DNA of 64,000 nucleotides from Candidatus Nomurabacteria bacterium (GCA_963834935.1 CAWIDS010000003.1:121373-185372); one strand, 5' to 3'. Counted from the first letter of the stretch, positions 1 through 45,915 are shown. The notes: a model not told the origin generated them from the letters alone. Translations and numbers: made by a program.

Positions 1-544
1 CTAGGCCCGCCTTCTCGATATCCAAATCAGCAAAGCCGAGGGAACGGAGATGACCATAGAGATTGTTCCATCCAGTCTTAGTGGAACCGATCCTCCATTC
101 CGCTATAGTTTCTGAAGCAAGTCCTCGATTCTTCAAATAATCGAGTGATTTATCATCATTTTTCAACTCACTCACATAGAACGACGTGGCCTCCTCCATA
201 ATCTTACGGAGTAGCTCCTTTTCTTCTTCGTCCTTGCGGCTGCTGCTGTTTCCGGCATAGCTTTCGAGCTTTACGCCCGCGCGCTCGGCAAGCAACGCAA
301 GTGCCTCCTTGAAGTCCATCTTCTCGAATTCCTGGACGAAGGTGAAGATATCCCCTTTAGCCCCGCAGCCGAAGCAGTAATAGGATCCGCGTTCCGGTGA
401 CACCATAAAAGAAGGCGTCTTTTCGTTGTGGAAAGGACACTTTCCTTTGAAGTTGGCTCCCGCGCGGTCAAGCTTGATGTATGAAGAGATGATGTCAGAG
501 ATGGGAAGCCGTTCCTTGATCTGTTCGACGGCTTGTGATGACAT
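1..544 (-). CDS. dnaG: DNA primase DnaG, N-terminal part (gene runs off the window start)
   Basis: The reverse-strand translation from ATG at 542-544 reads MSSQAVEQIKERLPISDIISSYIKLDRAGANFKGKCPFHNEKTPSFMVSPERGSYYCFGCGAKGD, carrying the CHC2 zinc-finger signature of DnaG. The start overlaps the rpoC stop (TAATG). It is absent from the ORF track because no stop lies in the window. Confidence 0.8.
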   Translation of the reverse strand, partial: MSSQAVEQIKERLPISDIISSYIKLDRAGANFKGKCPFHNEKTPSFMVSPERGSYYCFGCGAKGDIFTFVQEFEKMDFKEALALLAERAGVKLESYAGNSSSRKDEEEKELLRKIMEEATSFYVSELKNDDKSLDYLKNRGLASETIAEWRIGSTKTGWNNLYGHLRSLGFADLDIEKAGL

Positions 545-3500
545 TATTTTTGAGATGTTTCGTCTTCGATCATCTTCTGCTTGGGACTTCCTGGAAATCC
601 CGTACCTGCAGGAATGAGGCGTCCGATGAGGACATTTTCCATGAGGCCGTGAAGGTCATCGATGCTTCCGCGGATAGCTGAGCCGATAAGGATCTTGTTG
701 GTGTGTTGGAATGAAGCAGCTGATAGAAAGCTTCGGCGGGAAAGAGATACCTCAGTAATACCCATCACCATAGGCTCTGACTTCGCCTCGATTCCTCCCC
801 TTTCCTTTATCTTTTTGTTTTCCTCGACAAGCTCGAAATTTTCGACGATGTCTCCTGCTGAGAACGGACTGTCGCCTGATTCCTTTACCTTCACGCGGGT
901 GAACATCTGGCGCACAATCACTTCGATATGTTTTCGCGATACGGATTCTCCCTGAAGCTCGTAAGGCTTCTTCACTTCGCCGATGACATACTCCTGAGCC
1001 TTTTCGCGGCCGCCGTATCGGAACAATTCGTCGATATCGCACGATCCGTCGGTAAGGATGTCTCCCTTCTTCACTTTGTCTCCTACCTTCACCAGAAGCA
1101 CGCGGATCGGATGAACTGCATATTCGAGTTCATTTTTCGTCTTGGTTGATTTAGATGGCTTTGCCTTGTCGCTGATTTCAGGGACGACAATGATACTTTC
1201 TCTTTTCCGGTATTCCTTATTTCAGTGACCATTCCGTCGACGGTGGCGATTGCAAGGCTGGATTCTTAGGCTTTCGCTTTTCGAAGATCTCTTCGACGCG
1301 AGGAAGTCCGGCAGTGATGTCTCCTCCGACCGAAGCTGTTCCTCCGGCATGGAAAGTACGCATCGTAAGCTGAGTTCCCGGCTCTCCGATGGCTTGCGCA
1401 GCTACCGTTCCGACTGCTTCTCCGATGTCTATCATTCTATTCTTTCCAAGGTCAAGTCCATAGCACATTCGACAGATTCCAGAGAGCGTCTTGCAGGTCA
1501 GAGGAGACCTTACGACTACTCTTGCGATGCCTTGCGCTTCGATCATCTTGGCTTCTGTCTTGGTAAGCAGATGATTGCGCTTGAAGAGCAGCTTTCCGTC
1601 CTTGTCATTCAAGTCTTCAGCAAGCACTCGTCCGCTAATGTATTTCGAGATCGAAGTCTCGATGCCTGAAGCGCTTTCCTTGACGATGGCTATTCCCTCT
1701 TTCGTTCCGCAATCCTCTTCGCTCACTACCACGTTCTGGGCAACCACGAAGAGTTTTCGAGTGAGATATCCGGCTTTAGCAGTGTTAATGCGGTGTCAGT
1801 AAGTCCTTTTCGGGCTCCGTGAGTACGAGATGAAGTATTCGATCGGAGTGAGCCCTTCTTTCGAAGACTGAGAGAACTGGCACTTCGATAGTCTCTCCTT
1901 TCGAGTTCTGGATGAGTCCTTTCATTCCGGCCATCTGAGTGATGTTTCCGATGGAACCTCGGGCTCCCGATGTGACCATGTCGTGGACTGATCCATTCTT
2001 ATCGAGCGTTCCAGGGATAAGCTTCTCGATCTTGCTTTTAGCATCATGCCAGATCTCGACATTCTTTCGAAGCTTCTCCTGCTCTGAAAGGAGTCCTTCA
2101 TTGTATTGCTCGTAAACCAGCTCAGAGTCCTTCTTTGAGGCTTCGATGATCTGGAATTTTCCGTCAGGAATGACGACATCGTCGATTCCCCAAGTGATTC
2201 CTGACTTAGTGACATAAGTGAAGCCGAACTTCTTGATTTCGTCGAGAATGGCAGGAACAGCATTCACTCCGTAAATATTAATGAGGTCTTCGACGATTCC
2301 TGACATGACTTGATCGGGAAATTTCCTTGTTGACGAATGGATAGTCGGCAGGAAGAATAGCGTTGAAAAGAATCCTTCCAACAGTAGTATCGGCAAGCTT
2401 TCCGCCGAAAGCTGCCCATTTAGGACCTTCTTCAGGCAATACCTTTATCGCTGCCCGGAGCGAAAGCGCTCCAAAATCAAGGGCAGACATTGCAGCTTGA
2501 GGACTTTCGAAGATATTTCCTTCACCTTTTTCTCCAACGACAATCTTCGTCGTCCAGTAACATCCGAGCACCACATCAAGAAGCTTTGCAGTGACTGTAG
2601 GATCTCCGCTTCCCGGCTTAAGGATGTTCTTGTCTGACGCCATGATTTCCCGAGCTTCCATCTGCGCTTCTTCTCCGAGAGGAACGTGAACTGCCATGGT
2701 GTCTCCATCGAAGTCGGCATTGAAAGCGGAACATACGAATGGATGCACTTGGATAGCGTTACCTTCGATGAGTACAGGCTGGAAAGCCTGAATACCGAGG
2801 CGATGAAGAGTAGGTGCGCGGTTCAGGAGCACGTATTTATCCTTGATGACGTCTTCAAGGATGGCCCATACTTCAGGAATTCCATCATCGATAAGTCGAG
2901 ATGCGCCGCGGATGTTGAAAGCCAATTCCTTTTCAAGAAGTTTTGAGATGACGAAAGGCCGGAACAATTCCAAGGCCATGTGCTTAGGGAGTCCGCACTG
3001 ATTGAGGCGAAGTTCCGGACCCACGACGATAACCGATCGTCCTGAATAGTCCACGCGCTTTCCAAGGAGGTTCTGTCGGAAGAGTCCTCGTCTTGCCTTT
3101 CAAGTTGTCGGCAAGGGATTTGAGCGGACGTCGCTGTGCCTGATTGACTCCAGCGAAAAGCTGATTGCCGTGCCGGATCGAGTTGTCGATCAAGGCATCG
3201 ACAGCTTCCTGAAGGATTCGTTTTTCGTTTCGAAGAATCACATCAGGAGCTTGAATTTCCTTAAGCTTCTTCAAGCGGTTGTTTCGGTTGATCACGCGTC
3301 GATAAAGGTCATTGACGTCGGATGTCGCGTGTCGTCCTCCGTCGAGAGCGACCATAGGGCGAAGTGCTGCGGGAATGACAGGGATACTGAGTAAGGAACA
3401 TCCATTCAGGACGGAGTCTGAGCTGATCATTCCCTTGATAAGGCCGATTCGCTTGTTCAGTTTTTCGCTTTTCGGTTGAGCTTGCTGATTCGAGATCCTT

Positions 3501-4218
3501 TTCGAGGCTGTCAAGAAGTTTCTTGAGGTCGAGCTTCTTGAAAAGATTGAAGACCGCTTCAGCACCGATTGCAGCTTCGAAGAGCGTTCCGTATTTGAGC
3601 GAGAATTTGTGGTATACGATCTCGTCAAGGACTCGTCCTTCCTGGATACTCTCGATGTCGCGCTTTGCGCTGATCAGAAGTTGCTTGATTGCTTCCTTCG
3701 TTTTCTCGTCCTGAAGCGACTTTTCACTTTTGATCTTGTATTCGGAATCGAGATCCTTGAGCACGCGTGTCCGTTCTTCCTCATTAACCTTAGTGACGAG
3801 GTATCCGGCAAAGTAAACAACTTTCTCGAGCTCGCCACTGTTCATTCCCAGAAGAAGCGCGATTCGAGAAGGCATGGTTCGGAGGAACCAGATATGAGAA
3901 ACGGGCGTTGCAAGCTCGATATGCCCCATTCGTTCTCGGCGCACGATTGATCGCGTGATTTCCACTCCGCATTTTTCGCAGATGATTCCTTTGTATCTGA
4001 TGCCTCGGTATTTTCCGCAGTAACACTCATAATCCTTGTCCGGACCGAAAATCTTCTCGTCGAAGAGGCCATTCTTCTCGGAACGCTGGGTACGATAGTT
4101 CATCGTCTCAGGCTTGGTCACTTCTCCACGATGACCATTCCTTGATTCTCTCAGGCGATGCAAGCTTGAGTGAACTGGATCGAAATCGTTGAGGGTGTCA
4201 TGTTTTGTTTTTTTTCAT
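544..4218 (-). pseudogene. rpoC: RNA polymerase beta-prime subunit, split into at least 6 frame-shifted pieces as written
   Basis: Minus-strand ORF pieces 3309-4163, 2984-3628, 2278-3054, 1785-2396, 1217-1747 and 544-1101 are collinear with RpoC. Recognisable motifs are [15 protein letters not shown] (zinc finger), [15 protein letters not shown] (catalytic), MRTFHAGG and the C-terminal IGRLIPAGTG. Successive pieces lie in different frames, so these are indels rather than in-frame stops. The start region is atgaaaaaaaacaaaaca-tga: removing one A from the A8 run restores [38 protein letters not shown]. Confidence 0.85.
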
Positions 4219-4237
4219 ATATTTTTTTATATCGTTA

Positions 4238-7461
<3,224 letters not shown>

Positions 7462-7503
7462 ACGATAAAAATGCCCTAGGCGATAGGGTGTTATTGGTTA
7501 TTG

Positions 7504-7532
7504 ATAATAGAGACGCTGATAATCGTGGTCAA
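7504..7532 (-). promoter_or_regulatory. candidate sigma70-type promoter of rpoB (TTGACC-17-TATTAT)
   Basis: Minus-strand TTGACC (plus 7527-7532) and TATTAT (plus 7504-7509) are separated by 17 nt, about 45 nt upstream of the rpoB ATG. Confidence 0.4.
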
Positions 7533-7669
7533 AAGTTTGTTGCTTAAGAGAACGCTAGTAATCGGGTCGAGAGACAGTCTGACAACCAAATAATTACTCA
7601 GCGCCACAACAATGACTCAATCAGGCGTAATGAGATTGCTACTCTAGCAAACAAATATTAAATATGCAA

Positions 7670-7757
7670 GTGCAAAGGTTCTGGTAAGTATCTTTTTGAA
7701 CGGCTTAGGCTATCCTGCCGCTTGAGCGAAAAAAGATACTTATCAGAACCTTTGCAC
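7670..7757 (-). terminator. long hairpin (about 27-bp stem, about 32-nt loop) downstream of tRNA-Cys and upstream of the rpoB promoter
   Basis: gtgcaaaggttctggtaagtatcttttt pairs with aaaaagatacttatcagaacctttgcac with a single G-U. It is followed on the minus strand by a T-rich tract, so it is a likely intrinsic terminator or processing element. Confidence 0.45.
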
Positions 7758-7772
7758 TTATACCTTAATTTT

Positions 7773-7847
7773 TGGAGGCGTAGAGCGGAATCGAACCGCT
7801 GTATAGAGATTTTGCAGATCTCTGCCTTACCACTTGGCTACTACGCC
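7773..7847 (-). tRNA. tRNA-Cys (anticodon GCA), CCA encoded
   Basis: The reverse complement GGCGUAGUAGCCAAGUGGUAAGGCAGAGAUCUGCAAAAUCUCUAUACAGCGGUUCGAUUCCGCUCUACGCCUCCA folds as a cloverleaf with 7-bp acceptor, anticodon loop CUGCAAA and T-loop UUCGAUU. Confidence 0.9.
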
Positions 7848-7936
7848 GAAACGCCGGCTTTGGCTGACAGAAACAACCATAACAGATTTTCGTCAAAATA
7901 TGAAGCAAATCAAGGATAAAAGGCTGATTTGAGCCA

Positions 7937-7965
7937 TTGACTTTTTTAATAAAGTATGATAAAAT
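7937..7965 (+). promoter_or_regulatory. strong sigma70-type promoter (TTGACT-17-TAAAAT) driving the SPFH gene
   Basis: Consensus-like -35 TTGACT and -10 TAAAAT with exactly 17-nt spacing, about 115 nt upstream of the ATG at 8082. Confidence 0.55.
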
Positions 7966-8081
7966 AATCTCAGATTGAGAAAGGGTGCACAGGCGTGCAA
8001 ATGATCTCAGTTATCACTCACACAAACAAACCTCGGTCCCCTTTTAGGCGACCTTTGACAGCAGAATAGAAAGTTACAAAC

Positions 8082-9154
8082 ATGATCTACGTATTCTTCA
8101 CGCCGGTGGCTCTAGCAGCCTTCGGATACTTCCTCTATCAGCTTTACCGCTGGATGGGAGAAAACCAGATCGGCTTCACCTTCATGGATGGAGGTACCGG
8201 CCGAGTAATCGTCGTCGGCAAGGGCCAACCGGTCAAATTCCTCGTTAACCTTCCCGGTTACGATGTTAATGACCCACATAACCCTGACCAACACGACAAA
8301 AACTTCCCTGATTGGCAGATAATCCCCACGTCGCACTTTAAAGCCTACCGAGATGAAAACTTCCTCAAGAAGCGCCTCGGTATATGGCTTATCCATTGGT
8401 GGCCATTCAATTTCGTATACGAGTATAAGTTCAGCTGGGTGGAATTTCGCCAACCAGCAGGGCAGAACGAGTACACGACGCGTTCTCGGGAAGAAACGAC
8501 TAAAATCTTCATGGCGCAGAATTTCCCTTACTTCTCCGAAGTGACGGATTTCTACATCAGTGGAAATGCAGTCTTCAGCCTTCCCTATGCGGTAAACTTA
8601 GCCATCACCAATCCCATGATTGCCCTTTTCGGGAACGAAGACTGGCTGGCAACAGCCCTCTTCGCCCTGAATGAGCGTGCCAAGGATTGGGCAGGTGGCC
8701 AAAGCCTTGAACAGCTTCTCTCCGAAGCTGACGACGTAAAAGGCTCGATCAAGGAGTCATTCGACGAATGGATGAAGGAAATCAATAAGTTCCTCATAGA
8801 AAAAGTCGGAGTAGAGCTCAAAAGCGCGAACTTCCTGAAGCTCGTTGACAGAAACGAAGCAGCGGGAGCAATGCGTCAGGCAATTCAAGCTGTCTTCATC
8901 GCCCAACGGAGCGCGGATGCATCAGCATTCGATGCGACTCGGATCAAAATATCGGCCTGTCGGAGGCGAAGGTAGTACGAGCAAAAGCCGAAGCAGATGT
9001 CGCCGGAGAACTAACGTTCGCGGAAGCGTATCGCAATCATCCAGAACTCGCTCGCGCTCGCGCGATCGAACGGACCGGCCTCACTACACTCGTCGAAGGA
9101 GGCTCAAACCCGCCGCCCGTCATTCTTGACGCAAGCGGCAAACCAACTCGATAA
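8082..9154 (+). CDS. SPFH/band-7 (stomatin/HflC-like) membrane protein; one apparent frameshift near 8940-8975
   Basis: The N-terminal TM helix plus SPFH core runs 8082-8975. The C-terminal coiled segment typical of the family (..AKVVRAKAEADVAGELTFAEAYRNHPELARARAIERTGL..) continues in another frame to the TAA at 9152-9154. Confidence 0.6.
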
Positions 9155-9185
9155 AACACACAATCAAAAAAGGAAAAACTAAGAA

Positions 9186-9329
9186 ATGAAATTATTAATA
9201 ACACTGTTCTGGGGAACGATGTTCCTTGGAATCGTTGCTCTAACCATCGCCTACCTGCGCGGTCGGCGACCAGCAGCGCCGGAGCAGCGCCCGCTCCTGC
9301 CGGACCATCGGTCTGGAACACGATAAAGC
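9186..9329 (+). CDS. small membrane protein (47 aa), hypothetical
   Basis: ATG preceded by aaggaaaaa. The product MKLLITLFWGTMFLGIVALTIAYLRGRRPAAPEQRPLLPDHRSGTR has one TM helix. It is not in the ORF track because it is under 60 aa. Confidence 0.3.
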
Positions 9330-9343
9330 TGGCCTCCATCAAT

Positions 9344-10309
9344 ATGGGCGGTCAGCTCCGGACACAGCTCCAGACCAACTGGAAAATGATCTTCTTCCTG
9401 ACGGCAGGATTTGGACTTATTTTTTGGATGGTGACCAGTCCTCTTCCCTTCAATCTCGGCTTGCCTGAGGCTGATCGGAATTGGATCTGGCTCGTCGGAA
9501 CTGGCCTGATGAAGTTCCTTCTCTTCGTAGCTGTCATTGGCGCAGGACTCTGCATCAGTGCCGGCACGCCTGGGAAGGTGCTCTTCAGGATCATGATGGC
9601 AGTACTCGCCATCATGGCACTCTGCCTCATCTGGCATGAGCTTGCGAGCTCGGCCAGCAAGGTGGATTGGAAAGCGCTCAACCCGTTCAGTGCTAGCGCC
9701 GCGGCTCCGACCTCTTCAACAAGGTCGCCGCTCGGCAACAGCGCTAACAGCAGCAATGCTGGAGCGAACATCAACATAACTGTTGATGGGTCTGATGTTC
9801 ACAGCTTCTTCCAAGCACACTCCCACGAGTTGCTTGTGGGATTCATAGTGGTCATCATTCTCGTACTGCTCGCCTTCCTGATCTGTACTAAGATCGGCAG
9901 GTCAGTGCTGCTTGGACTGTTGCTTGTGTGCCTCACCCTTCTTGCTGTCTGCAAGCTTGGGGCGGCTATCAAGAATGGCGGCCACATCACGCCGAAGCCG
10001 CCTGAGCAGATGATCCTGCCTTCAATGCACATCAGTTCGGACCTGTGGTATCGGGTCGACTGGACGGATAATTGGCGGCACTGGAATTACCGCGACTTCA
10101 AGCGGCCGCTGCCAAGCAAGGTGCTGGTTATCTTCAGCAAAGAGGAGCCGGAGATGACCGATCCTGCCCAGTACATCATCAGCAACAAGACCGACTTCAA
10201 GGATGTTCGCGGGGATCATAGCATCCCTATGTGGATACGTCTGGAACCTGTCGATGGTCAAAACATCGAGGGTGACGTGACAATCTACTACGAGCATCAT
10301 GATGGATAG
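9344..10309 (+). CDS. polytopic membrane protein, hypothetical (321 aa)
   Basis: Several hydrophobic helices and a central Ser/Ala/Asn-rich linker; no recognisable catalytic motif. Confidence 0.6.
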   Translation: MGGQLRTQLQTNWKMIFFLTAGFGLIFWMVTSPLPFNLGLPEADRNWIWLVGTGLMKFLLFVAVIGAGLCISAGTPGKVLFRIMMAVLAIMALCLIWHELASSASKVDWKALNPFSASAAAPTSSTRSPLGNSANSSNAGANINITVDGSDVHSFFQAHSHELLVGFIVVIILVLLAFLICTKIGRSVLLGLLLVCLTLLAVCKLGAAIKNGGHITPKPPEQMILPSMHISSDLWYRVDWTDNWRHWNYRDFKRPLPSKVLVIFSKEEPEMTDPAQYIISNKTDFKDVRGDHSIPMWIRLEPVDGQNIEGDVTIYYEHHDG

Positions 10310-10354
10310 TTCTTTGGGGCTTGGCGCCCGCGATCCGTTCGCAAAAAACCAAAC

Positions 10355-10384
10355 GCTCGGACCATCACTGGTCCGAGCTTTTTT
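10355..10384 (+). terminator. rho-independent terminator (gctcggaccatcactggtccgagc plus T6), likely bidirectional
   Basis: A GC-rich 10-bp stem followed by tttttt lies between the convergent genes ending at 10309 (+) and 10405 (-). Confidence 0.6.
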
Positions 10385-10404
10385 ATTTGGCTATTTATCG
10401 ATGA

Positions 10405-10677
10405 TTATTTTTCTACCGCATCAAGAGTATTCGAAGTATTGATTCCGAAGGTTCCGGTTATGAGCTTGAGTATCCCGAAAGCCGATATCATTATGGCCAT
10501 TCCGATAAGACCGTACATGACATGCCTTTTTGCCGTCTCTAAGGCATCCGCTTCATTGGCTTTCCGTATGAACTGGACCAGTCCCCAAAGGAAGACCAGC
10601 AAAGCCACGGCAAACATCAGGATGATGATAGGATTCAGTATCTCCGTGCTTATGGCCGAAATGATTTTATCGAGCAT
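10405..10677 (-). CDS. small two-TM protein, paralog 1 of 6 (VirB2/TrbC-like pilin-type fold suspected)
   Basis: 90 aa. TM1, then a hydrophilic loop with KANEADALETAKRHV, then TM2. Same architecture as the next five genes but the most divergent and lacking the GGD motif. Confidence 0.5.
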   Translation of the reverse strand: MLDKIISAISTEILNPIIILMFAVALLVFLWGLVQFIRKANEADALETAKRHVMYGLIGMAIMISAFGILKLITGTFGINTSNTLDAVEK

Positions 10678-10702
10678 TTATTTGATGAGCTGGAGACTTG
10701 GA

Positions 10703-11059
10703 CTATTGGGAGCCAGTAGGAACTTGGTTCGGAATCTGGACAGTGTTGTTGTTCAAACCGATAGTGTTCGAAAGGATGCGCACGAGTCCCCAGACCGAGG
10801 TCATGATGAAGATGATGACGATTCCGAGGATGATGGTGTTTCGAGCCTCCTTTATCTTGTCAGGATCTCCGCCGGCAGTGACATATCGGAGAAGTCCGAA
10901 GATGAATACGAGCACCGCTACTCCGATAACGAACGGTATAAGCTTGTTAATGAAAGAGCTTATGCCTGTGAGGAAATCGCCGTTCGACAAATCAAGTGCC
11001 TGGGCGAAAAGCAACCCTGGAAGAAGCAACAATGCGAGTGAACCTAAAAATTTTTTCAT
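10703..11059 (-). CDS. small two-TM protein with signal peptide, paralog 2 of 6 (VirB2/TrbC-like)
   Basis: 118 aa. Signal-peptide-like N-terminus, then IPFVIGVAVLVFIFGLLRYVTAGGDPDKIKEARNTIILGIVIIFIMTSVWGLVRILSNTI, which is the shared core of the family. Confidence 0.65.
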   Translation of the reverse strand: MKKFLGSLALLLLPGLLFAQALDLSNGDFLTGISSFINKLIPFVIGVAVLVFIFGLLRYVTAGGDPDKIKEARNTIILGIVIIFIMTSVWGLVRILSNTIGLNNNTVQIPNQVPTGSQ

Positions 11060-11135
11060 ACGATAAATTAATTTCTTATAATAAGCTTAAGTGTAGCACA
11101 ACTGCCAATCTCCACAATAGGATTTATCCGAAAGC

Positions 11136-11474
11136 CTAGCTGACGGTATTGTTATGGCTGCCGTCAACGCCGTCGATATTCTTGGCGCCGGGAACCTGCG
11201 GTATCTCATCCGAACTAGGAGTGGTGTTTGAAAGCATGATGGTATTTGAAATTACTCGGACCAATCCCCAGACGCACGTCATGACGAAGATGATGACTAT
11301 CCCCATGATTATGCTGTCACGCGCTTCCTTTATGGTATCGGAATCTCCCCCCGCCCTGATGTATTTCAAAAGGCCGAATACGAAGATAAGCACAGCGACA
11401 CCAATGATGACGTAGATCGTCTGATTGATGAATTTGGTGATAGTAGCAATTGATGTGGTGGCATCAGTGAACAT
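11136..11474 (-). CDS. small two-TM protein, paralog 3 of 6
   Basis: 112 aa. The core YVIIGVAVLIFVFGLLKYIRAGGDSDTIKEARDSIIMGIVIIFVMTCVWGLVRVISNTI is over 70% identical to paralog 2. Confidence 0.65.
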   Translation of the reverse strand: MFTDATTSIATITKFINQTIYVIIGVAVLIFVFGLLKYIRAGGDSDTIKEARDSIIMGIVIIFVMTCVWGLVRVISNTIMLSNTTPSSDEIPQVPGAKNIDGVDGSHNNTVS

Positions 11475-11480
11475 TTGTGT

Positions 11481-11756
11481 TTATTTTAGCTGAGGGACAG
11501 TATAGCCATTCGAGAAGAAGGTGTTGACGAGGATGTGAACAAGTCCCCATACGGATATCATAACGAAAAGGGCTATGATGCCGAAGATGATGTAATTGCG
11601 CGCCTCCTTGACCGCGTCCGAATCCCCTCCTGCCGACATGTACTTCAGAAGGCCGAAGATGAACAGAAGCACGGCGACACCGATAATGAGCGGGATAAGA
11701 AGATTGATCGAATTAGTGAAGAAAGAAACTACGCATTTGAAATCAGTACAATTCAT
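11481..11756 (-). CDS. small two-TM protein, paralog 4 of 6
   Basis: 91 aa. Core IPLIIGVAVLLFIFGLLKYMSAGGDSDAVKEARNYIIFGIIALFVMISVWGLVHILVNT. Confidence 0.65.
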   Translation of the reverse strand: MNCTDFKCVVSFFTNSINLLIPLIIGVAVLLFIFGLLKYMSAGGDSDAVKEARNYIIFGIIALFVMISVWGLVHILVNTFFSNGYTVPQLK

Positions 11757-11765
11757 ATGTTTTTA

Positions 11766-12143
11766 TTATGATGAAGCGCTGCCAATATTGGTAACCGTGG
11801 TCTGGATGACGGTCGAGATGACCTTGGCGCCAAGGAGGATAGCAGCGCCGATGACTGTGTAAAGAAGGACGAGCTTTGCCGTCTTTATCTTCCCTTCGTC
11901 TCCGGCTGCCGTCACGAAAAGGAAGCCGGCGTAGATGATGGCGATGATACAGGCGATAGCGCCAAGCTTCATGACTCCGGCCAGGATATTATTAAGAAAA
12001 GTAAAAAGATCCCCATTGCCGTTCAAAGGATTGCAGATTTTCCCCCCGCAATCAGTAGGAGAATAGTCTGCAAAGGAATAGAGGGGAAGTGAAAGGGCTG
12101 CTACTGCCACCAAGACTGCCGCGTATTTCATTATTTTTTTCAT
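11766..12143 (-). CDS. small two-TM protein with signal peptide and Cys-containing ectodomain, paralog 5 of 6
   Basis: 125 aa. Signal peptide, DCGGKIC, then GAIACIIAIIYAGFLFVTAAGDEGKIKTAKLVLLYTVIGAAILLGAKV; shares the hydrophobic-AGGD-xxKIKxAK-hydrophobic pattern. Confidence 0.6.
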   Translation of the reverse strand: MKKIMKYAAVLVAVAALSLPLYSFADYSPTDCGGKICNPLNGNGDLFTFLNNILAGVMKLGAIACIIAIIYAGFLFVTAAGDEGKIKTAKLVLLYTVIGAAILLGAKVISTVIQTTVTNIGSASS

Positions 12144-12146
12144 ATA

Positions 12147-12599
12147 TTATTTTTGCTGCAACATGCTGTAGTTCGGATTGACGCCTAAGGTGGTAAGTAT
12201 GAAATGGACAATAAGCCATGCGCCAAAAGTGAAGACGAAGCCCAGCACCACCTTCCCTATCATCCCTTTCGCTTGTTCAACTTTACCACTATTTCCTCCT
12301 GATGTCAGCATCAGGAATCCCGCATAGACCAAAGTGATGGTAGCAATGACGATGGTGGCATAAAGGAGAAGATCGATGATGCGGTTTATGAGATTGATGA
12401 GGTCACTCCAGGTACATGATTTCTCGCCGCTGCCGGGTGCGCCGGTCGAATTGATCTGGCTCAGTAAAGGTGTTCCTTGGCAAAAAGTGCCGTCTATTAT
12501 CGAATAGTTTGAATCGCCCGGATTGTTGCTCATAGCCAACGCAGAATATGCTGGAAAGAGAAGGCTGAGCGAAAAGATGAATAGAAGTATTTTTCTCAT
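12147..12599 (-). CDS. small two-TM protein with signal peptide and Cys-containing ectodomain, paralog 6 of 6 (ORF-track start 12635 probably too long)
   Basis: The internal Met MRKILLFIFSLSLLFPAYSALA at 12599 begins just after the stop of the upstream gene. It carries ..CQGTP..CTW.. and IATITLVYAGFLMLTSGGNSGKVEQAKGMIGKVVLGFVFTFGAWLIV. Confidence 0.55.
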   Translation of the reverse strand: MRKILLFIFSLSLLFPAYSALAMSNNPGDSNYSIIDGTFCQGTPLLSQINSTGAPGSGEKSCTWSDLINLINRIIDLLLYATIVIATITLVYAGFLMLTSGGNSGKVEQAKGMIGKVVLGFVFTFGAWLIVHFILTTLGVNPNYSMLQQK

Positions 12600-12600
12600 T

Positions 12601-13941
12601 TTAATTGGCATTCTTATTGCTAATAATAAGGTCAAATTGCTCTTCAGCCTTGGCTACTGCTTCGCCTGAAGTATTTTGGCCCGAAAGGACTGATTCGATC
12701 ATCTCCTGGAAGATCCCTTGCGATTGGCCAGGCGCCGGATCAAGCCAAGCATGCGAATACAAAGCGCTCGCATAAAGCGTCGAGCTGAAGCTGTCGGAAG
12801 GAGGATTCGAAAGGAGATCCCTTCTGACCGGCGGCATACCTGAGACAACTGCATATCTCTTCAGGAAATCCTGGCCTGTGAGGGTATTGATCACGCTGAG
12901 GTCTGCCTCCTGTTTTTTCGATGAAGAGAGGATGGATAAGCCGAGCATCTTGCCGTAAGTGACAGGAATCGCTACAGAGCTTGTAGTTGTCCCTGTGCGC
13001 GGCTCAGGAAAAGGAGCCATGCCGAAATTGAGATTAGGATTCTTTGCTTGGATATCCTTCGCTTCGCTTCCGTAGCCGATATACATGGCGAGATTATTCG
13101 CCACAAAATCATCCAAGGAAGAAGGCCGCGAGCGGTTCCATGTGTATTCCTTCTGGGCCGGATTGGCGAACTGAGTGTAGAAATCAATCGGGCTGGAGAC
13201 TTGTCCGAAAGAGACCATTATCGAGTCCTCTTTTTTTCCGGCGTCATATCTGACTGTCGAAATGGGAATGCCGGCTTGGAAGAAAAGCGCCGAAAGGATA
13301 TCCTTGGCATTGTCTACATTGCGATATTCGCCGAGAGCGATGGCGCTCGTCTGGATATTAAAATTAGAATCGGATTTGCCGAGAATAGGAACCAAGGAAA
13401 GGACCTGGTCCCAATGAGTGGGCGGCAGCGGCTGATTGGCTGCGGTGAAGATATCCCTGTTCCAATAAAGGACAAGCGGATCGACGGAAAAAGGCAAAGC
13501 GAGATAGCCGTCATTGACCCGGTACTGCTCCGCTTCTTGTATGAAATTCCCTTTGAAGGTGCTCTCGCTGTAATTCGCAAAAGGAATGGTTGTGATCTTA
13601 TCCTTCTCTGCAAAGACTTGCTCGAGAGGGAGAAGGACGATGTCCGGGCCATTGCCGCTCGCAAGCGCCTCAAGAAGATCCTGATCGAAAGTGATAGGAT
13701 CTTTTTCGACATAAGTAGCATTGATGACAGGAACAAGGCTGTTCGATGACGGCCCATTTATAGCCGAGATGACTCCATTAATCTGCTTGGCGTCGGCAGT
13801 TCCCCAAATGACGACATGTGCCGCCACGGTCTGCGCCTGATTCTTGTTCGAAGAGAAAAAAGAGAATACTACTACTCCCACCAATGTGCCGACGATGCAG
13901 ACGGCGAGGATGATCAATTGAAAAGGATTTGCTTTCGACAT
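12601..13941 (-). CDS. membrane-anchored ABC-transporter solute-binding protein (family 1, sugar-binding type)
   Basis: 446 aa. N-terminal TM anchor then an SBP fold (HVVIWGTADAK.., ..LASGNGPDIVLLPLEQVFAEKDKITTIP.., ..NNLAMYIGYGSEAKD..). No permease or ATPase gene is adjacent. Confidence 0.65.
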   Translation of the reverse strand: MSKANPFQLIILAVCIVGTLVGVVVFSFFSSNKNQAQTVAAHVVIWGTADAKQINGVISAINGPSSNSLVPVINATYVEKDPITFDQDLLEALASGNGPDIVLLPLEQVFAEKDKITTIPFANYSESTFKGNFIQEAEQYRVNDGYLALPFSVDPLVLYWNRDIFTAANQPLPPTHWDQVLSLVPILGKSDSNFNIQTSAIALGEYRNVDNAKDILSALFFQAGIPISTVRYDAGKKEDSIMVSFGQVSSPIDFYTQFANPAQKEYTWNRSRPSSLDDFVANNLAMYIGYGSEAKDIQAKNPNLNFGMAPFPEPRTGTTTSSVAIPVTYGKMLGLSILSSSKKQEADLSVINTLTGQDFLKRYAVVSGMPPVRRDLLSNPPSDSFSSTLYASALYSHAWLDPAPGQSQGIFQEMIESVLSGQNTSGEAVAKAEEQFDLIISNKNAN

Positions 13942-18099: not shown

Positions 18100-18350
18100 A
18101 TTTAATGGGGAAGCGAACGCATGTGTAACTAGAATAGTCGAGAAGTGGGGGTGATTTGCCGAAAGGTAAAAACAAACCGCATGTGGCCCCTCTCTATATG
18201 AGAGGACGTTAAAGTCTGTTGTTCACGCAGCAGATGCTTCTTGATGGGCTCATGTCCCGTAGCCTGTTGGTGGAGGTAATGGCTCACCAAAGCTTCGACG
18301 GGTAGTCGATGGTTGAAAAATCATTGACCTTCAATCAGCCAAAAACACCT
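18100..18350 (+). ncRNA. 16S rRNA 5'-domain-like fragment (about E. coli positions 100-310), diverged, not part of a full rRNA operon
   Basis: Alignable by eye to 16S: GAAGCGAACGCATGTGTAAC ~ GGCGGACGGGTGAGTAAT; GTGGGGGTGATTTGCCGAAAGGTAAAAACAAACCGCAT ~ GGGGGATAACTACTGGAAACGGTAGCTAATACCGCAT; GATGGGCTCATGTCCCGTAGCCTGTTGGTGGAGGTAATGGCTCACCAAAGC ~ GATGGGATTAGCTAGTAGGTGGGGTAACGGCTCACCTAGGC. A terminator follows. Confidence 0.5.
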
Positions 18351-18351
18351 G

Positions 18352-18386
18352 CCGCGCAGCCTTCGGGCTGCGCGGTCCTTTTTTTA
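18352..18386 (+). terminator. rho-independent terminator (ccgcgcagccttcgggctgcgcgg plus T7)
   Basis: Perfect 10-bp GC stem with a UUCG loop, then ttttttt, closing the 16S-like transcript before the rpsA promoter (TTGCTT..TAAAAT at about 18404-18430). Confidence 0.65.
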
Positions 18387-18516
18387 TATTTCGCTTGCTT
18401 TCTTGCTTCTTGCGGCCTTTTGTGTAAAATCTACCTATTAATCAGTGCTTCTCGGTAACCCCGCCCTTGTCTCGATAGCTACGCAGGCGGAACCGTCTTG
18501 TACAACAAATATATAT

Positions 18517-19629
18517 ATGGTTACAACAGAAGAAAAGTTGGAAGAAAGTGCAGTAGTCGAGACAAAGAAATTGAGTTTGATGGATAAGTTTCTCTTGGAA
18601 AGCGTTACCCCTCCTGCAGAAGGAGACATCGTCGAAGGTCCGGTTATCGAGGCGCGAAAGGATCGCGTATTCGTCGATTTGCATCCCTATGGAACTGGTA
18701 TCATTTTCGGACGGGAATTCATCAATGCCCGCGACATCATACGGAAGGTCAACATCGGCGATAATATCGCAGCTAAGGTCATTTCCGTAGAAAACGACGA
18801 GGGTTACATCGAGCTTTCGCTCAAGGAAGCAAAGCAAGCGCTCATCTGGAGCGATGCCGAAGCAGCTATCCGCGACAAGACGACCTTCGACCTTGCAGTT
18901 GTCGAGGCAAACAAGGGAGGACTTATCCTCTCATGGCAAGGAATTCAGGGATTCCTTCCCGCTTCGCAGCTCAAGAACGATCACTACCCTCGCGTAGCGG
19001 ACGGCGACAAGGATCGCATTCTCGAAGAGCTCAGAAAATTAGTCGGAACCAAGATTCCAGTCATAATCATTTCCGCTCTTCCCAAGGAAGGAAAATTGAT
19101 CTTCTCAGAAAAAGATCCTGAATCGAAAGAAAAAGAAAAGATCGTCAGCAAATACGAAGTCGGAGAGGAATTGAACGGTGTTGTCACCGGTATCGTTGAT
19201 TTCGGAGTGTTCGTCAAAGTGGAAGAAGGCCTTGAAGGGCTTGTCCACATCTCTGAGATAGACTGGGCTCTCGTCGAGGATCCGAGAGCACTCTTCAAAG
19301 TCGGCGACAAGGTGAAAGTGAAGGTCATCGAGATCAAGGAAAACAAGATTTCCCTCTCAATCAAAGCCCTCAAGGAGAATCCTTGGAAAGGCGCCGAGAA
19401 GAAATACAAGAAAGATGACATCGTCGAAGGCGTCGTCATCAAGTTCAACCGCCATGGCGCGCTTGCTTCGATAGAAGAAGGTATCGCCGGACTCGTGCAC
19501 GTATCCGAATTTGGCAGCGAAGAAAAGCTCCGATCGACTCTCGAGCTCGGAAAGTCATACACCTTCAAGATCAGCCTCTTCGAGGCGAAGGATCAGAAGA
19601 TGACACTGTCGTTCGTCGAAAAGAAATAA
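18517..19629 (+). CDS. rpsA: 30S ribosomal protein S1 (four S1 domains)
   Basis: Repeated S1 domains (GDIVEGPVIEARKDRVFVDL.., ..GFLPASQLK.., ..GVVTGIVDFGVFVKV.., ..GVVIKFNRHGALASI..). Start chosen at MVTTEEKL; the ORF track starts at GTG 18445. Confidence 0.85.
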   Translation: MVTTEEKLEESAVVETKKLSLMDKFLLESVTPPAEGDIVEGPVIEARKDRVFVDLHPYGTGIIFGREFINARDIIRKVNIGDNIAAKVISVENDEGYIELSLKEAKQALIWSDAEAAIRDKTTFDLAVVEANKGGLILSWQGIQGFLPASQLKNDHYPRVADGDKDRILEELRKLVGTKIPVIIISALPKEGKLIFSEKDPESKEKEKIVSKYEVGEELNGVVTGIVDFGVFVKVEEGLEGLVHISEIDWALVEDPRALFKVGDKVKVKVIEIKENKISLSIKALKENPWKGAEKKYKKDDIVEGVVIKFNRHGALASIEEGIAGLVHVSEFGSEEKLRSTLELGKSYTFKISLFEAKDQKMTLSFVEKK

Positions 19630-38504: not shown

Positions 38505-39785
38505 TCAACGCTCCATCACGATTTTGGCGAAGCGAATCGTCGGATCGATGCGCGCTTTGCGAGTCCCAGAGAAGGAATGATGGTCGAGGAAATGATCCTG
38601 TTCTGATGAGGGTATGACTCTCAGCCTTTCAGGCATCAATTTTCCGCCGACATAGTAACCACCAGAAGTGATGTTGTACCGGCAATGATCCTGGACCGGG
38701 CAGTTGCCACAGCTTCTCTCGAAGCGTCTGACTCGCCCTGCGACGGAAAACAGCGTTTCTGCAGACCATTTCAAGCCGATATACCGCTTCCTTCCTTTGG
38801 GCACTTCCTGATCAGCAGGAAACTCAATAGCAAATGACCCTTCATCAAGGAGCGTTCCTCTATCTCTTTCCTCCCTGGCGACCTTTTTCAGCTTGTCCTC
38901 GCGGCGGGAATCGACCACGTACCCGGAATTGCCCGGGTTATCGCGGCAGAATGATCTCGAGAGAAGCCAAAGACAGTCGGTCAGGGCGATCGGCGATATC
39001 TTGGAATTCCTGCAATACCACTCAGTCACTTCCCGCGCAAGCCGCTGGGTCTCTGCCGTCATGAAATCGACACCTACTGCTTGCTTGGCATTCATTCCGC
39101 GCACCCGAAGGATCTGATTTGAAGTCAGCAATCGCAGGATATGGAAATCGACTGGTACCGGCGCGTAGAACATCGGCACGAGCTTGGCGTCCATCAGGAA
39201 GTAGGCAATCATGGCGACCATCTTTTCCCGGAAAAACATGAATCCGTGAGGCTTGTCATCATTCCGGAAATCTCCGTTGCTGCCAATCGTCTTGCCTTTG
39301 ATGCGCTTTGTAAGCTTCGAGAATCTTCGGACGGTCATGCATCAGTAGGCACGGATTCCTTTCCAGAACCGTGCTAGCTTTCTCATGTTGTAAACCCAGC
39401 CGAGGGAATTCTCTTGTGCACGCTGACCGAGACGATGCTCGACAAGCGCTCCATTGATTTCCGTAATCTGCTCCCTTGTCCTTTGAGGCCCCCAATCATC
39501 GTAGTCATACGGATTGAAGAGGTCCGGCCTTTTCTCATGCATCTCCTTGAGCAAGGATGCGGCAGTGTCGCTTTCGACGCCGCCGCGCATCCACAAGCAA
39601 AGCAGGAAGAGGAAGACCGCATGCTGCGCGCTACCCTTTTCCAGGTTTGAAGGAAGGAATTGGTCAGCTTGGGGCACGTGAGCCCTGTTGTAAGGTGGCC
39701 CTTTTTCCGAGAGCCGTTGAATCAAAGCGTTAAAGACCACTCGGGCCTGGCGCTTATCTGCGTAGAACCGAATTTTTTCATTCAT
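38505..39785 (-). CDS. hypothetical protein, written as two same-frame ORFs (39342-39785 and 38505-39338) joined by one in-frame TGA
   Basis: ..KGIRAY-TGA-C-MTVRRF..; the stop at 39342-39344 and the next ATG at 39336-39338 are in the same reading frame. The C-terminal half has a Cys cluster RSCGNCPVQDHC. GC-rich. Confidence 0.4.
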
Positions 39786-39819
39786 AAATGTGCTTGGACT
39801 TCGCCTAGCTTAGCAAAAA

Positions 39820-39856
39820 TCCAGAAAAAGCCAAATCCCGCCTTTCAGCGGGATTT
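39820..39856 (-). terminator. terminator of rnpB (aaatcccgctgaaaggcgggattt plus GGCTTTTTCTGG on the minus strand)
   Basis: Hairpin with T-tract immediately 3' of the RNase P RNA. Confidence 0.6.
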
Positions 39857-40152
39857 GGGTGCGTCTATAAGCCGAATTCTGTATTGGACGATCATTTATC
39901 TGGGCCTTTGATCACTCAAAGGCTCGAGCGGCACTCGCCGATTACCGCCGTTTCGGGCATAAATCAGCGCACGGCCTTGCACAGAAGTAAGGATTTTGCC
40001 GTTTCACCCTCCGCTTGCGCGGAGGCTCGTCTCTGTTCGCACCTCGGCCATCGCTGGCGACGGGAATTACCCGCTACTCTTGGCTCTTGCGAGCCGCTGT
40101 GTTCGGACTTTCCTCCCTGCCTTTCGGCAAGAGCGATCATCTGGCGCACTCG
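39857..40152 (-). ncRNA. rnpB: RNase P RNA (bacterial type A-like, compact)
   Basis: On the minus strand: GAGGAAAGUCCGAACACAG (P4 5' strand), GCGGGUAAUUCCCG (L15-like GGUAA), GGAGGGUGAAACGGC (J11/12), and GGCCCAGAUAAAUGAUCGUCCAAUACAGAAUUCGGCUUA, which matches E. coli GGCCUAGAUGAAUGACUGUCCACGACAGAACCCGGCUUA. P4 covaries (GUCCGAAC with GAAUUCGGCU versus GUCCGGGC with GAACCCGGCU). Confidence 0.85.
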
Positions 40153-40161
40153 GCTACTTTA

Positions 40162-40698
40162 CTATTTTGAAGAGGTGTTGTCTACTAAAGTGATCTTGCT
40201 TCCCACCTGGACATTATGCTGATCGAAGAATCCAGCATTAACTTCAAGCACGTACTTCGAAGGAACATCCGAACCGAAAGTCTCAGGATAGGTGCTCGGC
40301 GACACGTTCTTTTCCTCATGAACGATAGTAAAGTCGCTGCCAAGCCATGCGATATCGAGTGGATAGATCATGTCTTTCATCCATATCTGTGGGTTACCGA
40401 GCGAATCGAATACGAAAAGCATTCCCTTGTTGTCATCAAGATAAAATGAGCCTCCGAGACCGCGCTCCCTTTCAGCTTCGGTGGAAGCAAGATCAACTGA
40501 TATTTGTGTATCGCCAATCGAAATCGGCACAGGAATCTTGTCATTCGAGCTGAGGTCTATCGATATCTCCTGATCAAGGCTGTTCTGCTGGAGGCTTTTG
40601 ACATAGGGGATGAATACGTAAAATATCGCCGCCACGATAAGCAACACGGCGACAAGAATGAGTATCTTCTTTAAGCTGCCGGCATGATCATAATCCAT
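40162..40698 (-). CDS. DUF192-family protein (COG1430), membrane-anchored
   Basis: ..GMLFVFDSLGNPQIWMKDMIYPLDIAWLGSDFTIV.. matches the DUF192 core. Confidence 0.6.
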   Translation of the reverse strand: MDYDHAGSLKKILILVAVLLIVAAIFYVFIPYVKSLQQNSLDQEISIDLSSNDKIPVPISIGDTQISVDLASTEAERERGLGGSFYLDDNKGMLFVFDSLGNPQIWMKDMIYPLDIAWLGSDFTIVHEEKNVSPSTYPETFGSDVPSKYVLEVNAGFFDQHNVQVGSKITLVDNTSSK

Positions 40699-40727
40699 GA
40701 CCTGATTATATATGATATCCTGGAAGC

Positions 40728-41102
40728 ATGCACAGGTTCGAAATCACCTACAGCCTCGCAAAATGCCCCTTCGGCTGGTGCGTCCTCGGTATGAACGGCA
40801 GCAGGATATGTGGTCTTTCTTTTTTGGAGAGCGATGACAAGAAAAAGGCCGCAGCGATGATCAGAAAATTTTCGATTCCCTTCGGAGAAACAGTGAACTA
40901 CTCGGATATTGCCAGAACCATCAAATCGCCCCGAGCTGTCAGGGCCGTCGGCACCGCCTGCGGCAGGAACCCTATCAATTTCATTATTCCCTGCCATCGC
41001 GTCCTCACCTCCGATGGTGGCCTTGGCGGATACAATAGCGGCATCAAGAGAAAGAAAGAAATAGTGGAATGGGAAGCGGAGTTGCGGACGAAAGGTAAAT
41101 AA
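40728..41102 (+). CDS. ogt: methylated-DNA--protein-cysteine methyltransferase (Ogt/MGMT) DNA-binding domain protein
   Basis: ..IIPCHRVL.. is the active-site PCHR motif. Confidence 0.8.
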   Translation: MHRFEITYSLAKCPFGWCVLGMNGSRICGLSFLESDDKKKAAAMIRKFSIPFGETVNYSDIARTIKSPRAVRAVGTACGRNPINFIIPCHRVLTSDGGLGGYNSGIKRKKEIVEWEAELRTKGK

Positions 41103-41188
41103 AAAAGTCCCGCACTGAGCGAGACATTCAAGCAAACGTGGCAGGCTTGTAGGAAAATTCCTTGACCACCGTCCCTTCCGCATTGAAG

Positions 41189-41602
41189 TTAACCGTAGCT
41201 TCGATTCTTTCCCCCAGCAAGAACGAGCGGAAGCCATTCCACATCGTCAATCCACATCTTTTTATAAGGAATATCCGAAAGTGGATACCATTTTGGCCGC
41301 ATCTCTTTCGTCTCAGCCGGCTCCCCTTGCCACTGTCGCGCAAAGAAAACATAGCAATCGAAGATGTGATTCCCATCGAAATAGAAATGAAGGAAGGCGA
41401 CCTGGACGAGATCTTCTTCCTCAGCAACGAGACAAAATTCCTCATTGAGCTCGCGTGCGGCTGCAGTCTTGATGCTTTCGTTCCCTTCGATCTTGCCGCC
41501 GGGCCCATTTATTTTTCCTTCGCCAAAGCCCTCCAATTTCAAACCAAGAAGAATCTCATCAGGCTTCAGGCAAAAACAAAGCGTTGTTTTTTTCATATAC
41601 AC
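41189..41602 (-). CDS. NUDIX hydrolase
   Basis: Nudix box GGKIEGNESIKTAAARELNEEFCL. Confidence 0.8.
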   Translation of the reverse strand: MYMKKTTLCFCLKPDEILLGLKLEGFGEGKINGPGGKIEGNESIKTAAARELNEEFCLVAEEEDLVQVAFLHFYFDGNHIFDCYVFFARQWQGEPAETKEMRPKWYPLSDIPYKKMWIDDVEWLPLVLAGGKNRSYG

Positions 41603-44309: not shown

Positions 44310-44313
44310 GTTT

Positions 44314-45474: not shown

Positions 45475-45531
45475 GCATATTGTATCAAATTATTTCCTCT
45501 CTATTCAATAGAGGGGGTGTTGATAAGTACC

Positions 45532-45915
45532 CTACAGCATCTTCAGCGACAACCTGCTTAATACCTTCACTGCATTGTCCTGGGCAGTCTTGCTGTCCTT
45601 GCTTGCGACGAAATTGTCCCAATCGGTATTGAGAACATCGTCATGAAGCTGGCGGATGTCATCCTCAAGCTTGACGCGGTCGTCATAGGAGATGGTGGCA
45701 TTCTGGTTGACCAGGACGGTATCGATGAAGAATTTGAGCGTCTGCGCCGTCTGTAGGCGAAGCTGATCCTTCTGATCCATGGCAGTGGTCTGATCCTGGA
45801 GGAGCTTCTCATTGGTGGTATATTGGATGCTAAAGAAGATGTTTCCTGCAAGAAGGACGAGCATCAAAAAGTTAGAGAACAAGCGTACCCTGTCTAATCC
45901 TGAGCTAAAAGTCAT
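45532..45915 (-). CDS. membrane-anchored hypothetical protein (127 aa)
   Basis: N-terminal TM helix and a helical C-terminus. Confidence 0.4.
   Translation of the reverse strand: MTFSSGLDRVRLFSNFLMLVLLAGNIFFSIQYTTNEKLLQDQTTAMDQKDQLRLQTAQTLKFFIDTVLVNQNATISYDDRVKLEDDIRQLHDDVLNTDWDNFVASKDSKTAQDNAVKVLSRLSLKML

Follow-up and report, generated by a model that had tools for sequence, protein, structure and literature searches.

Dense frameshifts in rpoB and rpoC of a Patescibacteria contig most likely reflect a consensus built from mixed populations

Introduction

How can both large RNA polymerase genes appear broken by frameshifts in a bacterium, given that RNA polymerase cannot be lost by an organism? 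The question is raised by a 64-kb stretch of Candidatus Nomurabacteria DNA (the window), near the start of which an initial annotation had placed at least 13 indels in rpoC and rpoB and a single one in a presumed SPFH gene, with larger neighboring genes left intact. That annotation favored localized consensus error, arising from low coverage, strain collapse or long-read homopolymer error, and named a decayed second copy and genuine pseudogenization as alternatives. Both genes also serve routinely as markers in phylogenetics and in estimates of genome completeness. Single-base indels that split genes are a recognized class of artefact in long-read assemblies (PMC9262707), and in long-read metagenome assemblies frameshift errors form an acknowledged class, more common in complex samples such as soil (PMC13087279).

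Results

Both genes lie on the minus strand, rpoC (RNA polymerase β′) at 544–4217 and rpoB (RNA polymerase β) at approximately 4238–7461, and ORF lists and tblastn show each of them to be full length and collinear with intact relatives from end to end, while split across frames. Because the pieces occupy different frames, recoded stop codons under an alternative genetic code can be ruled out; the frame changes are true indels, as the initial annotation had held. Frameshift-aware protein-to-DNA alignment put the frame-changing events at no fewer than 12 for rpoC, a count identical for each of three references, and at 27–30 for rpoB (four references, 82% identity), so that the earlier figure of at least 13, correct as to the reality of the indels, strongly underestimates a number closer to 40. 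Despite these events, the approximately 2290 corrected codons of rpoB and rpoC contain no in-frame stop. The corrected RpoB (1070 aa) is 82–83% identical to many intact RpoB proteins of 1056–1100 aa, and RpoB is intact in all of the best 120 full-length homologues listed. When aligned to intact homologues, which carry precomputed Pfam Rpb1 and Rpb2 domains, the corrected RpoB and RpoC show every expected domain in collinear order, the catalytic NADFDGD motif among them. Lineage-wide fragmentation of RpoC was considered, since a first homologue search returned only RpoC pieces of at most 450 aa, and rejected after a full-length query and GTDB loci revealed intact genes in relatives; the first query was 258 aa long, and a length limit set by it is the probable reason for the short matches.

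The disruptions are sharply confined. If frame-changing events were evenly spread over the 64 kb, the chance of at least 39 of 40 falling within the 6.9 kb of rpoBC would be 7e-37. The 5′ part of the primase gene dnaG (2–544, minus strand), which runs off the window start, is intact, with Pfam matches to Zn_ribbon_DnaG (5e-36) and DNAG_N, and an intact tRNA-Cys (GCA) gene (7773–7847, minus strand) stands between rpoB and the next gene. Full-length domain matches were also obtained for GyrA (823 aa), the class-I aminoacyl-tRNA synthetase ValS (713 aa), FtsA, FtsZ, PheT (678 aa) and GH130 genes of 667 and 386 aa, which bears out the earlier observation that gyrA, valS, GH130, ftsZ and ftsA are undamaged and extends it to dnaG and pheT. 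Three further candidate sites in the window were examined and discarded: the three overlapping ORFs at 40162–41602 are distinct genes, encoding a DUF192 protein, a protein of unknown function and a NUDIX protein, the 1.1-kb apparent gap at 44408–45532 is a third GH130 ORF, and the gap at 39785–40162 is occupied by RNase P RNA.

One frameshift does lie elsewhere, in an orphan gene on the plus strand (8082–9154) that is SPFH-like at best. A single base is missing at approximately 8947–8953 (ATCAAAATATC), whether from a run of A or within a variable codon, and the 357-aa protein obtained by stitching the frames aligns collinearly with its sole homologue (P0244; 50% identity, 99% coverage), which was all that the homologue search for a near-identical intact copy returned. 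The count of exactly one frameshift is hence confirmed and the SPFH label weakened, as Pfam yields no Band_7 match in the stitched protein, and in P0244 the match (E=0.012, 16.1 bits) falls below the Pfam cut-off of 23.6. This frameshift is separate from the rpoBC events.

An intact version of the locus is available in an independent public assembly, the Logan contig L081 (run ERR10755936), which carries the same dnaG-rpoC arrangement and encodes an uninterrupted RpoC of 1221 aa (P0122). Window positions 1–1128, including the dnaG segment, show zero differences from L081; the first difference occurs at 1129, and from there to 4401, where L081 ends, the two sequences differ by 102 mismatches, mostly synonymous, and 30 single-base indels, 21 of them in rpoC. 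The shared dnaG neighbor and the identical 1128-bp flank indicate that the window locus is allelic, not paralogous, to the intact one. In their distribution the mismatches resemble genuine variation shaped by selection, with third, first and second codon positions accounting for 60, 18 and 12 of them, respectively, and 57 synonymous against 28 non-synonymous substitutions. Furthermore, at mismatch sites the window base agrees with nine relatives more often than the L081 base does (51 sites versus 24), an asymmetry that a consensus drawn toward relatives by their reads would be expected to show, and that could also stem from faster evolution in the L081 lineage. The homologue search found no near-identical intact RpoB (best match, 82% identical) and the allele-level analysis therefore addresses rpoC together with the final 160 nt of rpoB, which the near-identical intact allele covers. 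The block in which both substitutions and indels concentrate hence runs from 1129, as set by the comparison with L081, to at least 7347, its right edge lying beyond the last robust rpoB event (7341–7347).

These observations bear directly on the notion of a decaying pseudogene, whether an extra rpoBC copy that has died or the loss of genes by a degenerate symbiont. At first glance, two neighboring genes with so many disruptions do look decayed, Patescibacteria genomes are reduced, and the 64 kb inspected, out of a contig of 201.5 kb, leave room for a second copy elsewhere in the genome. Neutral decay, however, accumulates nonsense codons and shows no codon-position bias, and rpoBC displays neither property: stops are wholly absent from the corrected frames, substitutions relative to the intact allele lean synonymous, and the rpoC indels follow codon structure, with deletions restricted to wobble sites, which is impossible under neutral decay. 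In addition, the locus is allelic to an intact one, and it is established that loss of RNA polymerase is not an option for the organism. Pseudogenization and a decayed second copy, the alternatives offered by the initial annotation, are thus contradicted, and we regard decay as very unlikely.

The exact placement of indels against L081 reveals where they fall; in most of rpoB positions can be assigned to within a few bases, and the wobble-site result pertains to rpoC. All six rpoC deletions (alignment positions 4173, 3680, 3569, 3413, 1786 and 1194) affect third codon positions, for which the chance expectation is (1/3)^6 = 0.0014, and each deleted base has a run length of 1. The leftmost indel, at 1194 (the gap position in the L081 alignment; minus strand), removes the third-position G of a GTG codon. 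Among the 15 inserted rpoC bases, 13 are unlike both of their neighbors, and 14 match the alternative allele that relatives carry at an adjacent aligned site (null expectation 8.4 ± 2.0; P=0.0014). Several insertions on the minus strand read as two alleles written in succession. At 3090, an inserted C turns AAG-AGA-GGA into AAGACGAGGA, so that the Arg alleles AGA (L081) and CGA (relatives) are both present, as ACGA; this insertion produces the non-homopolymer break that had been noted around GKTRTL. At 1824, an inserted A combines TCT (L081) with ACT (all six relatives shown) into TACT, and at 4199 an inserted G combines TAC (L081) with GAC (a relative, L001) into TGAC. Further instances of allele doubling in rpoC include TCG/TCA rendered as TCAG and AAA/AAG rendered as AAGA.

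The insertion at 4199 also settles the reading of the rpoC start, where the initial annotation had placed an indel in an A8 run and proposed that A7 would restore the frame. The run exists, and relative to L081 arises by a T>A substitution (ATAAAAAAC to AAAAAAAAC); the true frame break is the G inserted beside it. This run is one of two arguments for genuine frame changes bypassed in expression by programmed ribosomal frameshifting or transcriptional slippage, the other being that slippage on long A runs is known to rescue frameshifted genes in some endosymbionts. Yet the frame does not break at the A8 run, the exactly placed indels lie outside homopolymers, and the approximately 40 sites share no evident slippery motif, their contexts being heterogeneous and non-repetitive; no conserved slippery sequence or long homopolymer common to relatives is apparent at the shift sites. 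Moreover, close and distant relatives encode uninterrupted genes, and frameshift positions differ among affected contigs. The probability that such a bypass operates here is, in our estimation, vanishingly small.

A more substantial competing account dispenses with any mixture of populations and invokes random errors of sequencing chemistry where long-read coverage was poor or polishing was lacking, such as across a gap between good contigs that a handful of noisy reads spanned. It is in keeping with the size of the affected block (~6.3 kb), which is that of a single long read, with the approximately 3:1 excess of insertions over deletions, and with an error density that approaches raw-read levels at 4232–4360 (minus strand), the most error-dense stretch, which spans the C-terminal tail of rpoB and the spacer to rpoC and in which nine indels fall within ~130 nt and just beyond which the k-mer contig L081 terminates. 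Random errors would nonetheless not be expected to hit third codon positions in six of six deletions, to introduce a neighboring-site alternative allele in 14 of 15 insertions, or to bring 102 mainly synonymous substitutions, and the association with homopolymers is absent: rpoC indels do not sit inside same-base runs. The non-homopolymer character reported at the outset is thereby borne out in rpoC, whose indels speak against two of the causes then proposed, homopolymer error and simple low-coverage random error, as the latter would not select third codon positions. We consider the random-error account unlikely.

The pattern recurs beyond the window. In three other long Patescibacteria contigs fragmentation is centered on rpoBC, at positions that differ: in two of them (L082, 956 kb; L084, 434 kb) rpoBC is fragmented and large neighbors are intact, and in the third (L085, 222 kb) clpB is split as well. 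This recurrence makes the artefact look systematic at rpoBC, which is both long and conserved. Across affected contigs, frameshifts gather in common hot regions, which lie at variable codons within conserved motifs. A further contig, L083, shows classical homopolymer-linked frameshifts spread along its length.

Discussion

The evidence gathered here suggests that the frameshifts are most likely errors of consensus building that are not present in the organism's DNA. Specifically, it appears highly probable that the approximately 40 one-base indels in rpoBC are false and were made by an assembler that merged the reads of at least two populations closely related to each other. Two features expected of such a mixed consensus were found, namely an uninterrupted version of the locus for this organism, in L081, and, in rpoC, indels at polymorphic sites that carry alternative alleles. 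The cause preferred by the initial annotation, localized consensus error and strain collapse in particular, is accordingly favored by the intact allele with its identical flank and by the position of indels on polymorphic and wobble sites.

In the mechanism we propose, the consensus or polishing step over positions 1129 to at least 7347 would have operated on a mixed read pile contributed by no fewer than two closely related populations, the additional reads deriving from a second strain, from one or more related Patescibacteria species, or from both. These reads would have been inseparable at the 7-kb rpoBC locus because of its strong conservation. Where the populations differ by a single base, both alleles may have been written side by side, generating a false 1-nt insertion, or neither may have been written, generating a false 1-nt deletion, and elsewhere one allele may have been picked, leaving an apparent SNP. 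The outcome would be a chimeric sequence with approximately 3% mostly synonymous "SNPs" and some 40 frame-breaking indels, bounded by less conserved flanks that remain clean if foreign reads do not pile up there. This scheme presumes that the record comes from a long-read (overlap-consensus) assembly and that a conserved locus can recruit foreign reads, and the allele-doubling step itself is suggested by the sequence patterns described above. Clean flanks next to a population approximately 97% identical in rpoBC also require either a more distant relative whose high similarity is limited to this region or strains that differ only within the block.

Under this mixed-consensus mechanism, the organism almost certainly carries normal rpoB and rpoC genes. 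The converse, in which frameshifted rpoBC genes physically exist in cells, as a recently inactivated second copy beside an intact one or as genes expressed despite massive frameshifting, and in which the wobble pattern has a biological cause, strikes us as extremely improbable. The practical value of the finding is modest, and it has no biological significance. On the one hand, fragmented rpoBC genes in the window and in at least three other public Patescibacteria contigs can distort marker trees, completeness estimates and pseudogene counts. On the other hand, the case illustrates that a mixed-population consensus can be recognized from sequence alone, through wobble-site indels, duplicated alleles, the lack of stops and an error-free flank that an intact allele matches exactly.

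Several known systems resemble the locus in part. Natural splits of RNA polymerase genes, such as cyanobacterial rpoC1/rpoC2 and archaeal A′/A″, likewise distribute the large subunits over more than one ORF, but they do so at one conserved domain boundary and endow each piece with its own start and stop, whereas in the window the frame changes at approximately 40 arbitrary points, with no start signals and with unsplit genes in relatives. Endosymbiont pseudogenes rescued by poly(A) slippage also make essential genes of a small genome look frameshifted; they involve, however, one or a few indels inside long homopolymers under relaxed selection, as opposed to some 40 indels outside homopolymers, a synonymous bias and an intact allele at the locus. 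Frameshift and truncated-protein errors of long-read assemblies, which are revealed by the IDEEL test and corrected by proovframe or Homopolish, come closer, in that genes encoded at full length by relatives are broken up by indels of one base. In their classical form these errors are homopolymer-linked and contig-wide, whereas the indels considered here occur only in rpoBC, keep clear of homopolymers and coincide with wobble sites. Lastly, the collapsed-strain consensus of long-read metagenome assembly, the problem addressed by Strainberry, Strainy and Floria, similarly merges reads of similar haplotypes into an allele mosaic with no counterpart among real genomes. Relative to that situation, in which variants are lost across a whole genome, the window presents false indels at SNP sites within one conserved locus of 6–7 kb, and the sequence bordering the affected block is identical to that of one real haplotype.

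Results

The rpoC (544-4217) and rpoB (about 4238-7461) genes, both on the minus strand, are frame-broken, and are flanked by the 5' part of dnaG (2-544, minus strand) and by a tRNA-Cys gene (7773-7847, minus strand). In tblastn searches with intact RpoB, RpoC and DnaG proteins from the GTDB genomes L001, L003 and L005 of related Patescibacteria, both polymerase genes were collinear from first to last residue while hopping among all three frames, as the initial annotation had described. Frame-changing events, for which that annotation had advised a frameshift-aware count, were enumerated with a purpose-written protein-to-DNA alignment permitting frameshifts, which returned 12 events in rpoC with each of three references and 27-30 in rpoB with four references of 82% identity; the true number is about three times the earlier figure of at least 13 indels. 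The corrected rpoB and rpoC frames contain no in-frame stop in about 2290 codons, yielding a complete RpoC and a 1070-aa RpoB. The remainder of the window consists of long, tightly packed open reading frames, and the larger neighbouring genes are indeed intact, with domain matches running end to end in GyrA, a class-I aminoacyl-tRNA synthetase (ValS), FtsA, FtsZ, PheT and the GH130 genes. Were 40 events scattered evenly, 39 of them would land in rpoBC with a probability of 7e-37.

A 258-aa RpoC fragment clusters at 90% identity with P0122, a full-length 1221-aa RpoC from the Logan assembly of run ERR10755936. P0122 is encoded on L081, a 6.3-kb contig holding the rpoB end, an intact rpoC, dnaG and one additional gene. 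Aligned base by base, window positions 1-1128 are identical to L081, and positions 1129-4401, where L081 ends, differ by 102 mismatches and 30 single-base indels. Judged by this alignment, L081 is the same locus, with rpoC whole, from the same organism or one nearly identical to it, which makes the window rpoC allelic to an intact gene and not a paralogue. These allele-level comparisons take in rpoC but, of rpoB, just the final 160 nt. The mismatches fall at codon positions 3, 1 and 2 in the proportion 60:18:12 and comprise 57 synonymous versus 28 non-synonymous changes, indicating that most of them represent real variation under purifying selection, rather than random error or neutral decay. 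Substitution density is mosaic along the block: the catalytic core (2001-2500) has next to no substitutions, and values of 4-7% are reached across the N-terminal third of rpoC and in the rpoB tail. Indel density peaks there as well, with 9 indels within 130 nt (4232-4360), close to where the k-mer contig L081 terminates.

The indels bear little resemblance to chemistry errors. The deleted bases all lie in runs of length 1, the inserted bases are unlike either neighbour in 13 of 15 cases, and all six rpoC deletions affect third codon positions (chance 0.0014). Furthermore, 14 of 15 inserted bases correspond to the relatives' alternative allele at the adjacent aligned site, against a random expectation of 8.4 +/- 2.0 (P=0.0014). 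At 3090, for instance, L081 has AGA (Arg), the relatives CGA (Arg) and the window ACGA, which accounts for the frame break noted earlier around GKTRTL; the same pattern is seen at 1824 (TCT in L081, ACT in the relatives, TACT in the window), 1869 (TCG, TCA, TCAG), 3735 (AAA, AAG, AAGA) and 4199 (TAC, GAC, TGAC). We know of no mutation process that picks wobble positions for deletions or inserts a neighbour's alternative allele. A decaying pseudogene is contradicted by these wobble-site indels, by the lack of stops in the corrected frames, by the synonymous bias of the substitutions and by the allelic nature of the intact copy. Programmed frameshifting or slippage is likewise contradicted, since the roughly 40 sites are heterogeneous and non-repetitive, the relatives carry intact genes, and the A8 run at the rpoC start, initially put forward as a site of frame disruption, is not where the frame breaks. 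Random errors in a read-sized unpolished segment would account for the size of the block, but leave both the codon-aware placement of indels and the synonymous SNPs unexplained.

Four further contigs, drawn from short RpoC matches sitting on long contigs, were inspected. L082 (JGI, 956 kb) carries 4 rpoB and 5 rpoC frameshifts (9) at 5570-12491 next to intact genes with products of 646, 776, 582, 478 and 1001 aa. L084 (ENA/NCBI, 434 kb) has 1 and 12 (13) at 5660-12510, with intact ligase, FtsW and RecA neighbours and FtsK called as two genes (259 + 424 aa), and L085 (222 kb) has 7 and 4 (11) at 5451-12750, with clpB also split. In L083 (717 kb), genes are broken throughout, as is usual in a noisy assembly. 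The rpoBC breakage in L082, L084 and L085, all three public Patescibacteria contigs, suggests a locus-specific assembly artefact, and frameshift positions differ from contig to contig, arguing against any conserved biological signal. The 'contig_N' names of the ENA records presumably follow a long-read-assembler style. Separately, the homologue search with the 258-aa query listed no protein above 450 aa, despite the existence of full-length RpoC proteins; candidates seem to have been restricted by length relative to the query, which can make fragmented genes look falsely common.

The orphan gene at 8082-9154 (plus strand), 1.5 kb distant from rpoB, gives a stitched product collinear with the 374-aa protein P0244 (50% identity, 99% coverage), the only homologue found among 5.8 billion proteins besides the record's own fragment, and is a member of a very rare family. 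The collinearity implies exactly one frameshift, at about 8947-8953, where the local sequence, ATCAAAATATC, would fit an A5 run shortened by one A, or the loss of a variable base. The single frameshift initially reported for this gene hence stands; its SPFH label is weak, the Band_7 match of P0244 being below threshold. We regard this frameshift as distinct from the rpoBC events, an ordinary one-off error or mutation.

Several other elements were observed in the window. An isolated 262-nt stretch (18108-18369, plus strand) matches only positions 104-347 of the bacterial 16S rRNA model, with 56.9 bits in the whole-window search (gathering score 50) and 48.8 bits when searched locally. It lies within a 410-bp spacer, upstream of the gene for an S1-domain protein (18445-19629), and its folding is moderately better than that of shuffled sequence (z = -2.4). 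A modern piece of 16S rRNA should score higher than this; the stretch may be a degenerate fragment of rRNA or a leader that mimics rRNA. Two adjoining GH130 (mannoside phosphorylase-like) genes lie at 42405-45474 (minus strand), a 667-aa open reading frame with a tandem domain and a 386-aa one with an apparent N-terminal hydrophobic segment, overlapping by about 95 nt as maximal frames. Five small paralogous frames (90-125 aa) form a tandem array at 10405-12143 (minus strand), each with a hydrophobic core and a common 'GGD.D..KEAR' motif. The apparent non-coding gap at 39852-40152 is occupied by a bacterial class A RNase P RNA (minus strand, 133 bits).

Discussion

The frameshifts in rpoB and rpoC are not real biology, and their interest as a biological feature is accordingly low. 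The localized consensus error preferred in the initial annotation is borne out by the intact allelic copy and by indels that sit at wobble sites or double an allele; among the causes it listed, collapse of strains or species is favoured, whereas homopolymer and low-coverage error fit poorly with run-length-1 deletions and codon-aware placement. Given two haplotypes in roughly equal proportion, a consensus step should, we infer, either write out both bases at a SNP or leave both out. The rpoBC block would not be separable between populations, whereas its flanks would be, presumably because few highly conserved segments in a bacterial genome are longer.

At the mismatch sites, the window base agrees with nine relatives at 51 sites and the L081 base at 24, a skew that fits a consensus pulled by reads of related populations, with faster evolution of the L081 lineage as an alternative explanation. 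Under a mixed consensus, the partner may be a single close strain, or else several related species. The contigs share hot regions at residues 260-275 and 361-375 of L001 RpoC, and in the second both the window and L082 break at a variable codon within an invariant motif; in L082, both ATA and TAC appear to have been written out. Such spots, where perfectly anchored flanks enclose one multi-allelic codon, are where errors are predicted under a mixture model.

The sequencing platform was probably long-read. The feature serves as a quality warning for rpoB and rpoC in long-read metagenome-assembled genomes. Frameshift errors are an acknowledged error class of long-read metagenome assemblies, commoner in those from soil (PMC13087279; for background on such errors in long-read assemblies, see PMC9262707).
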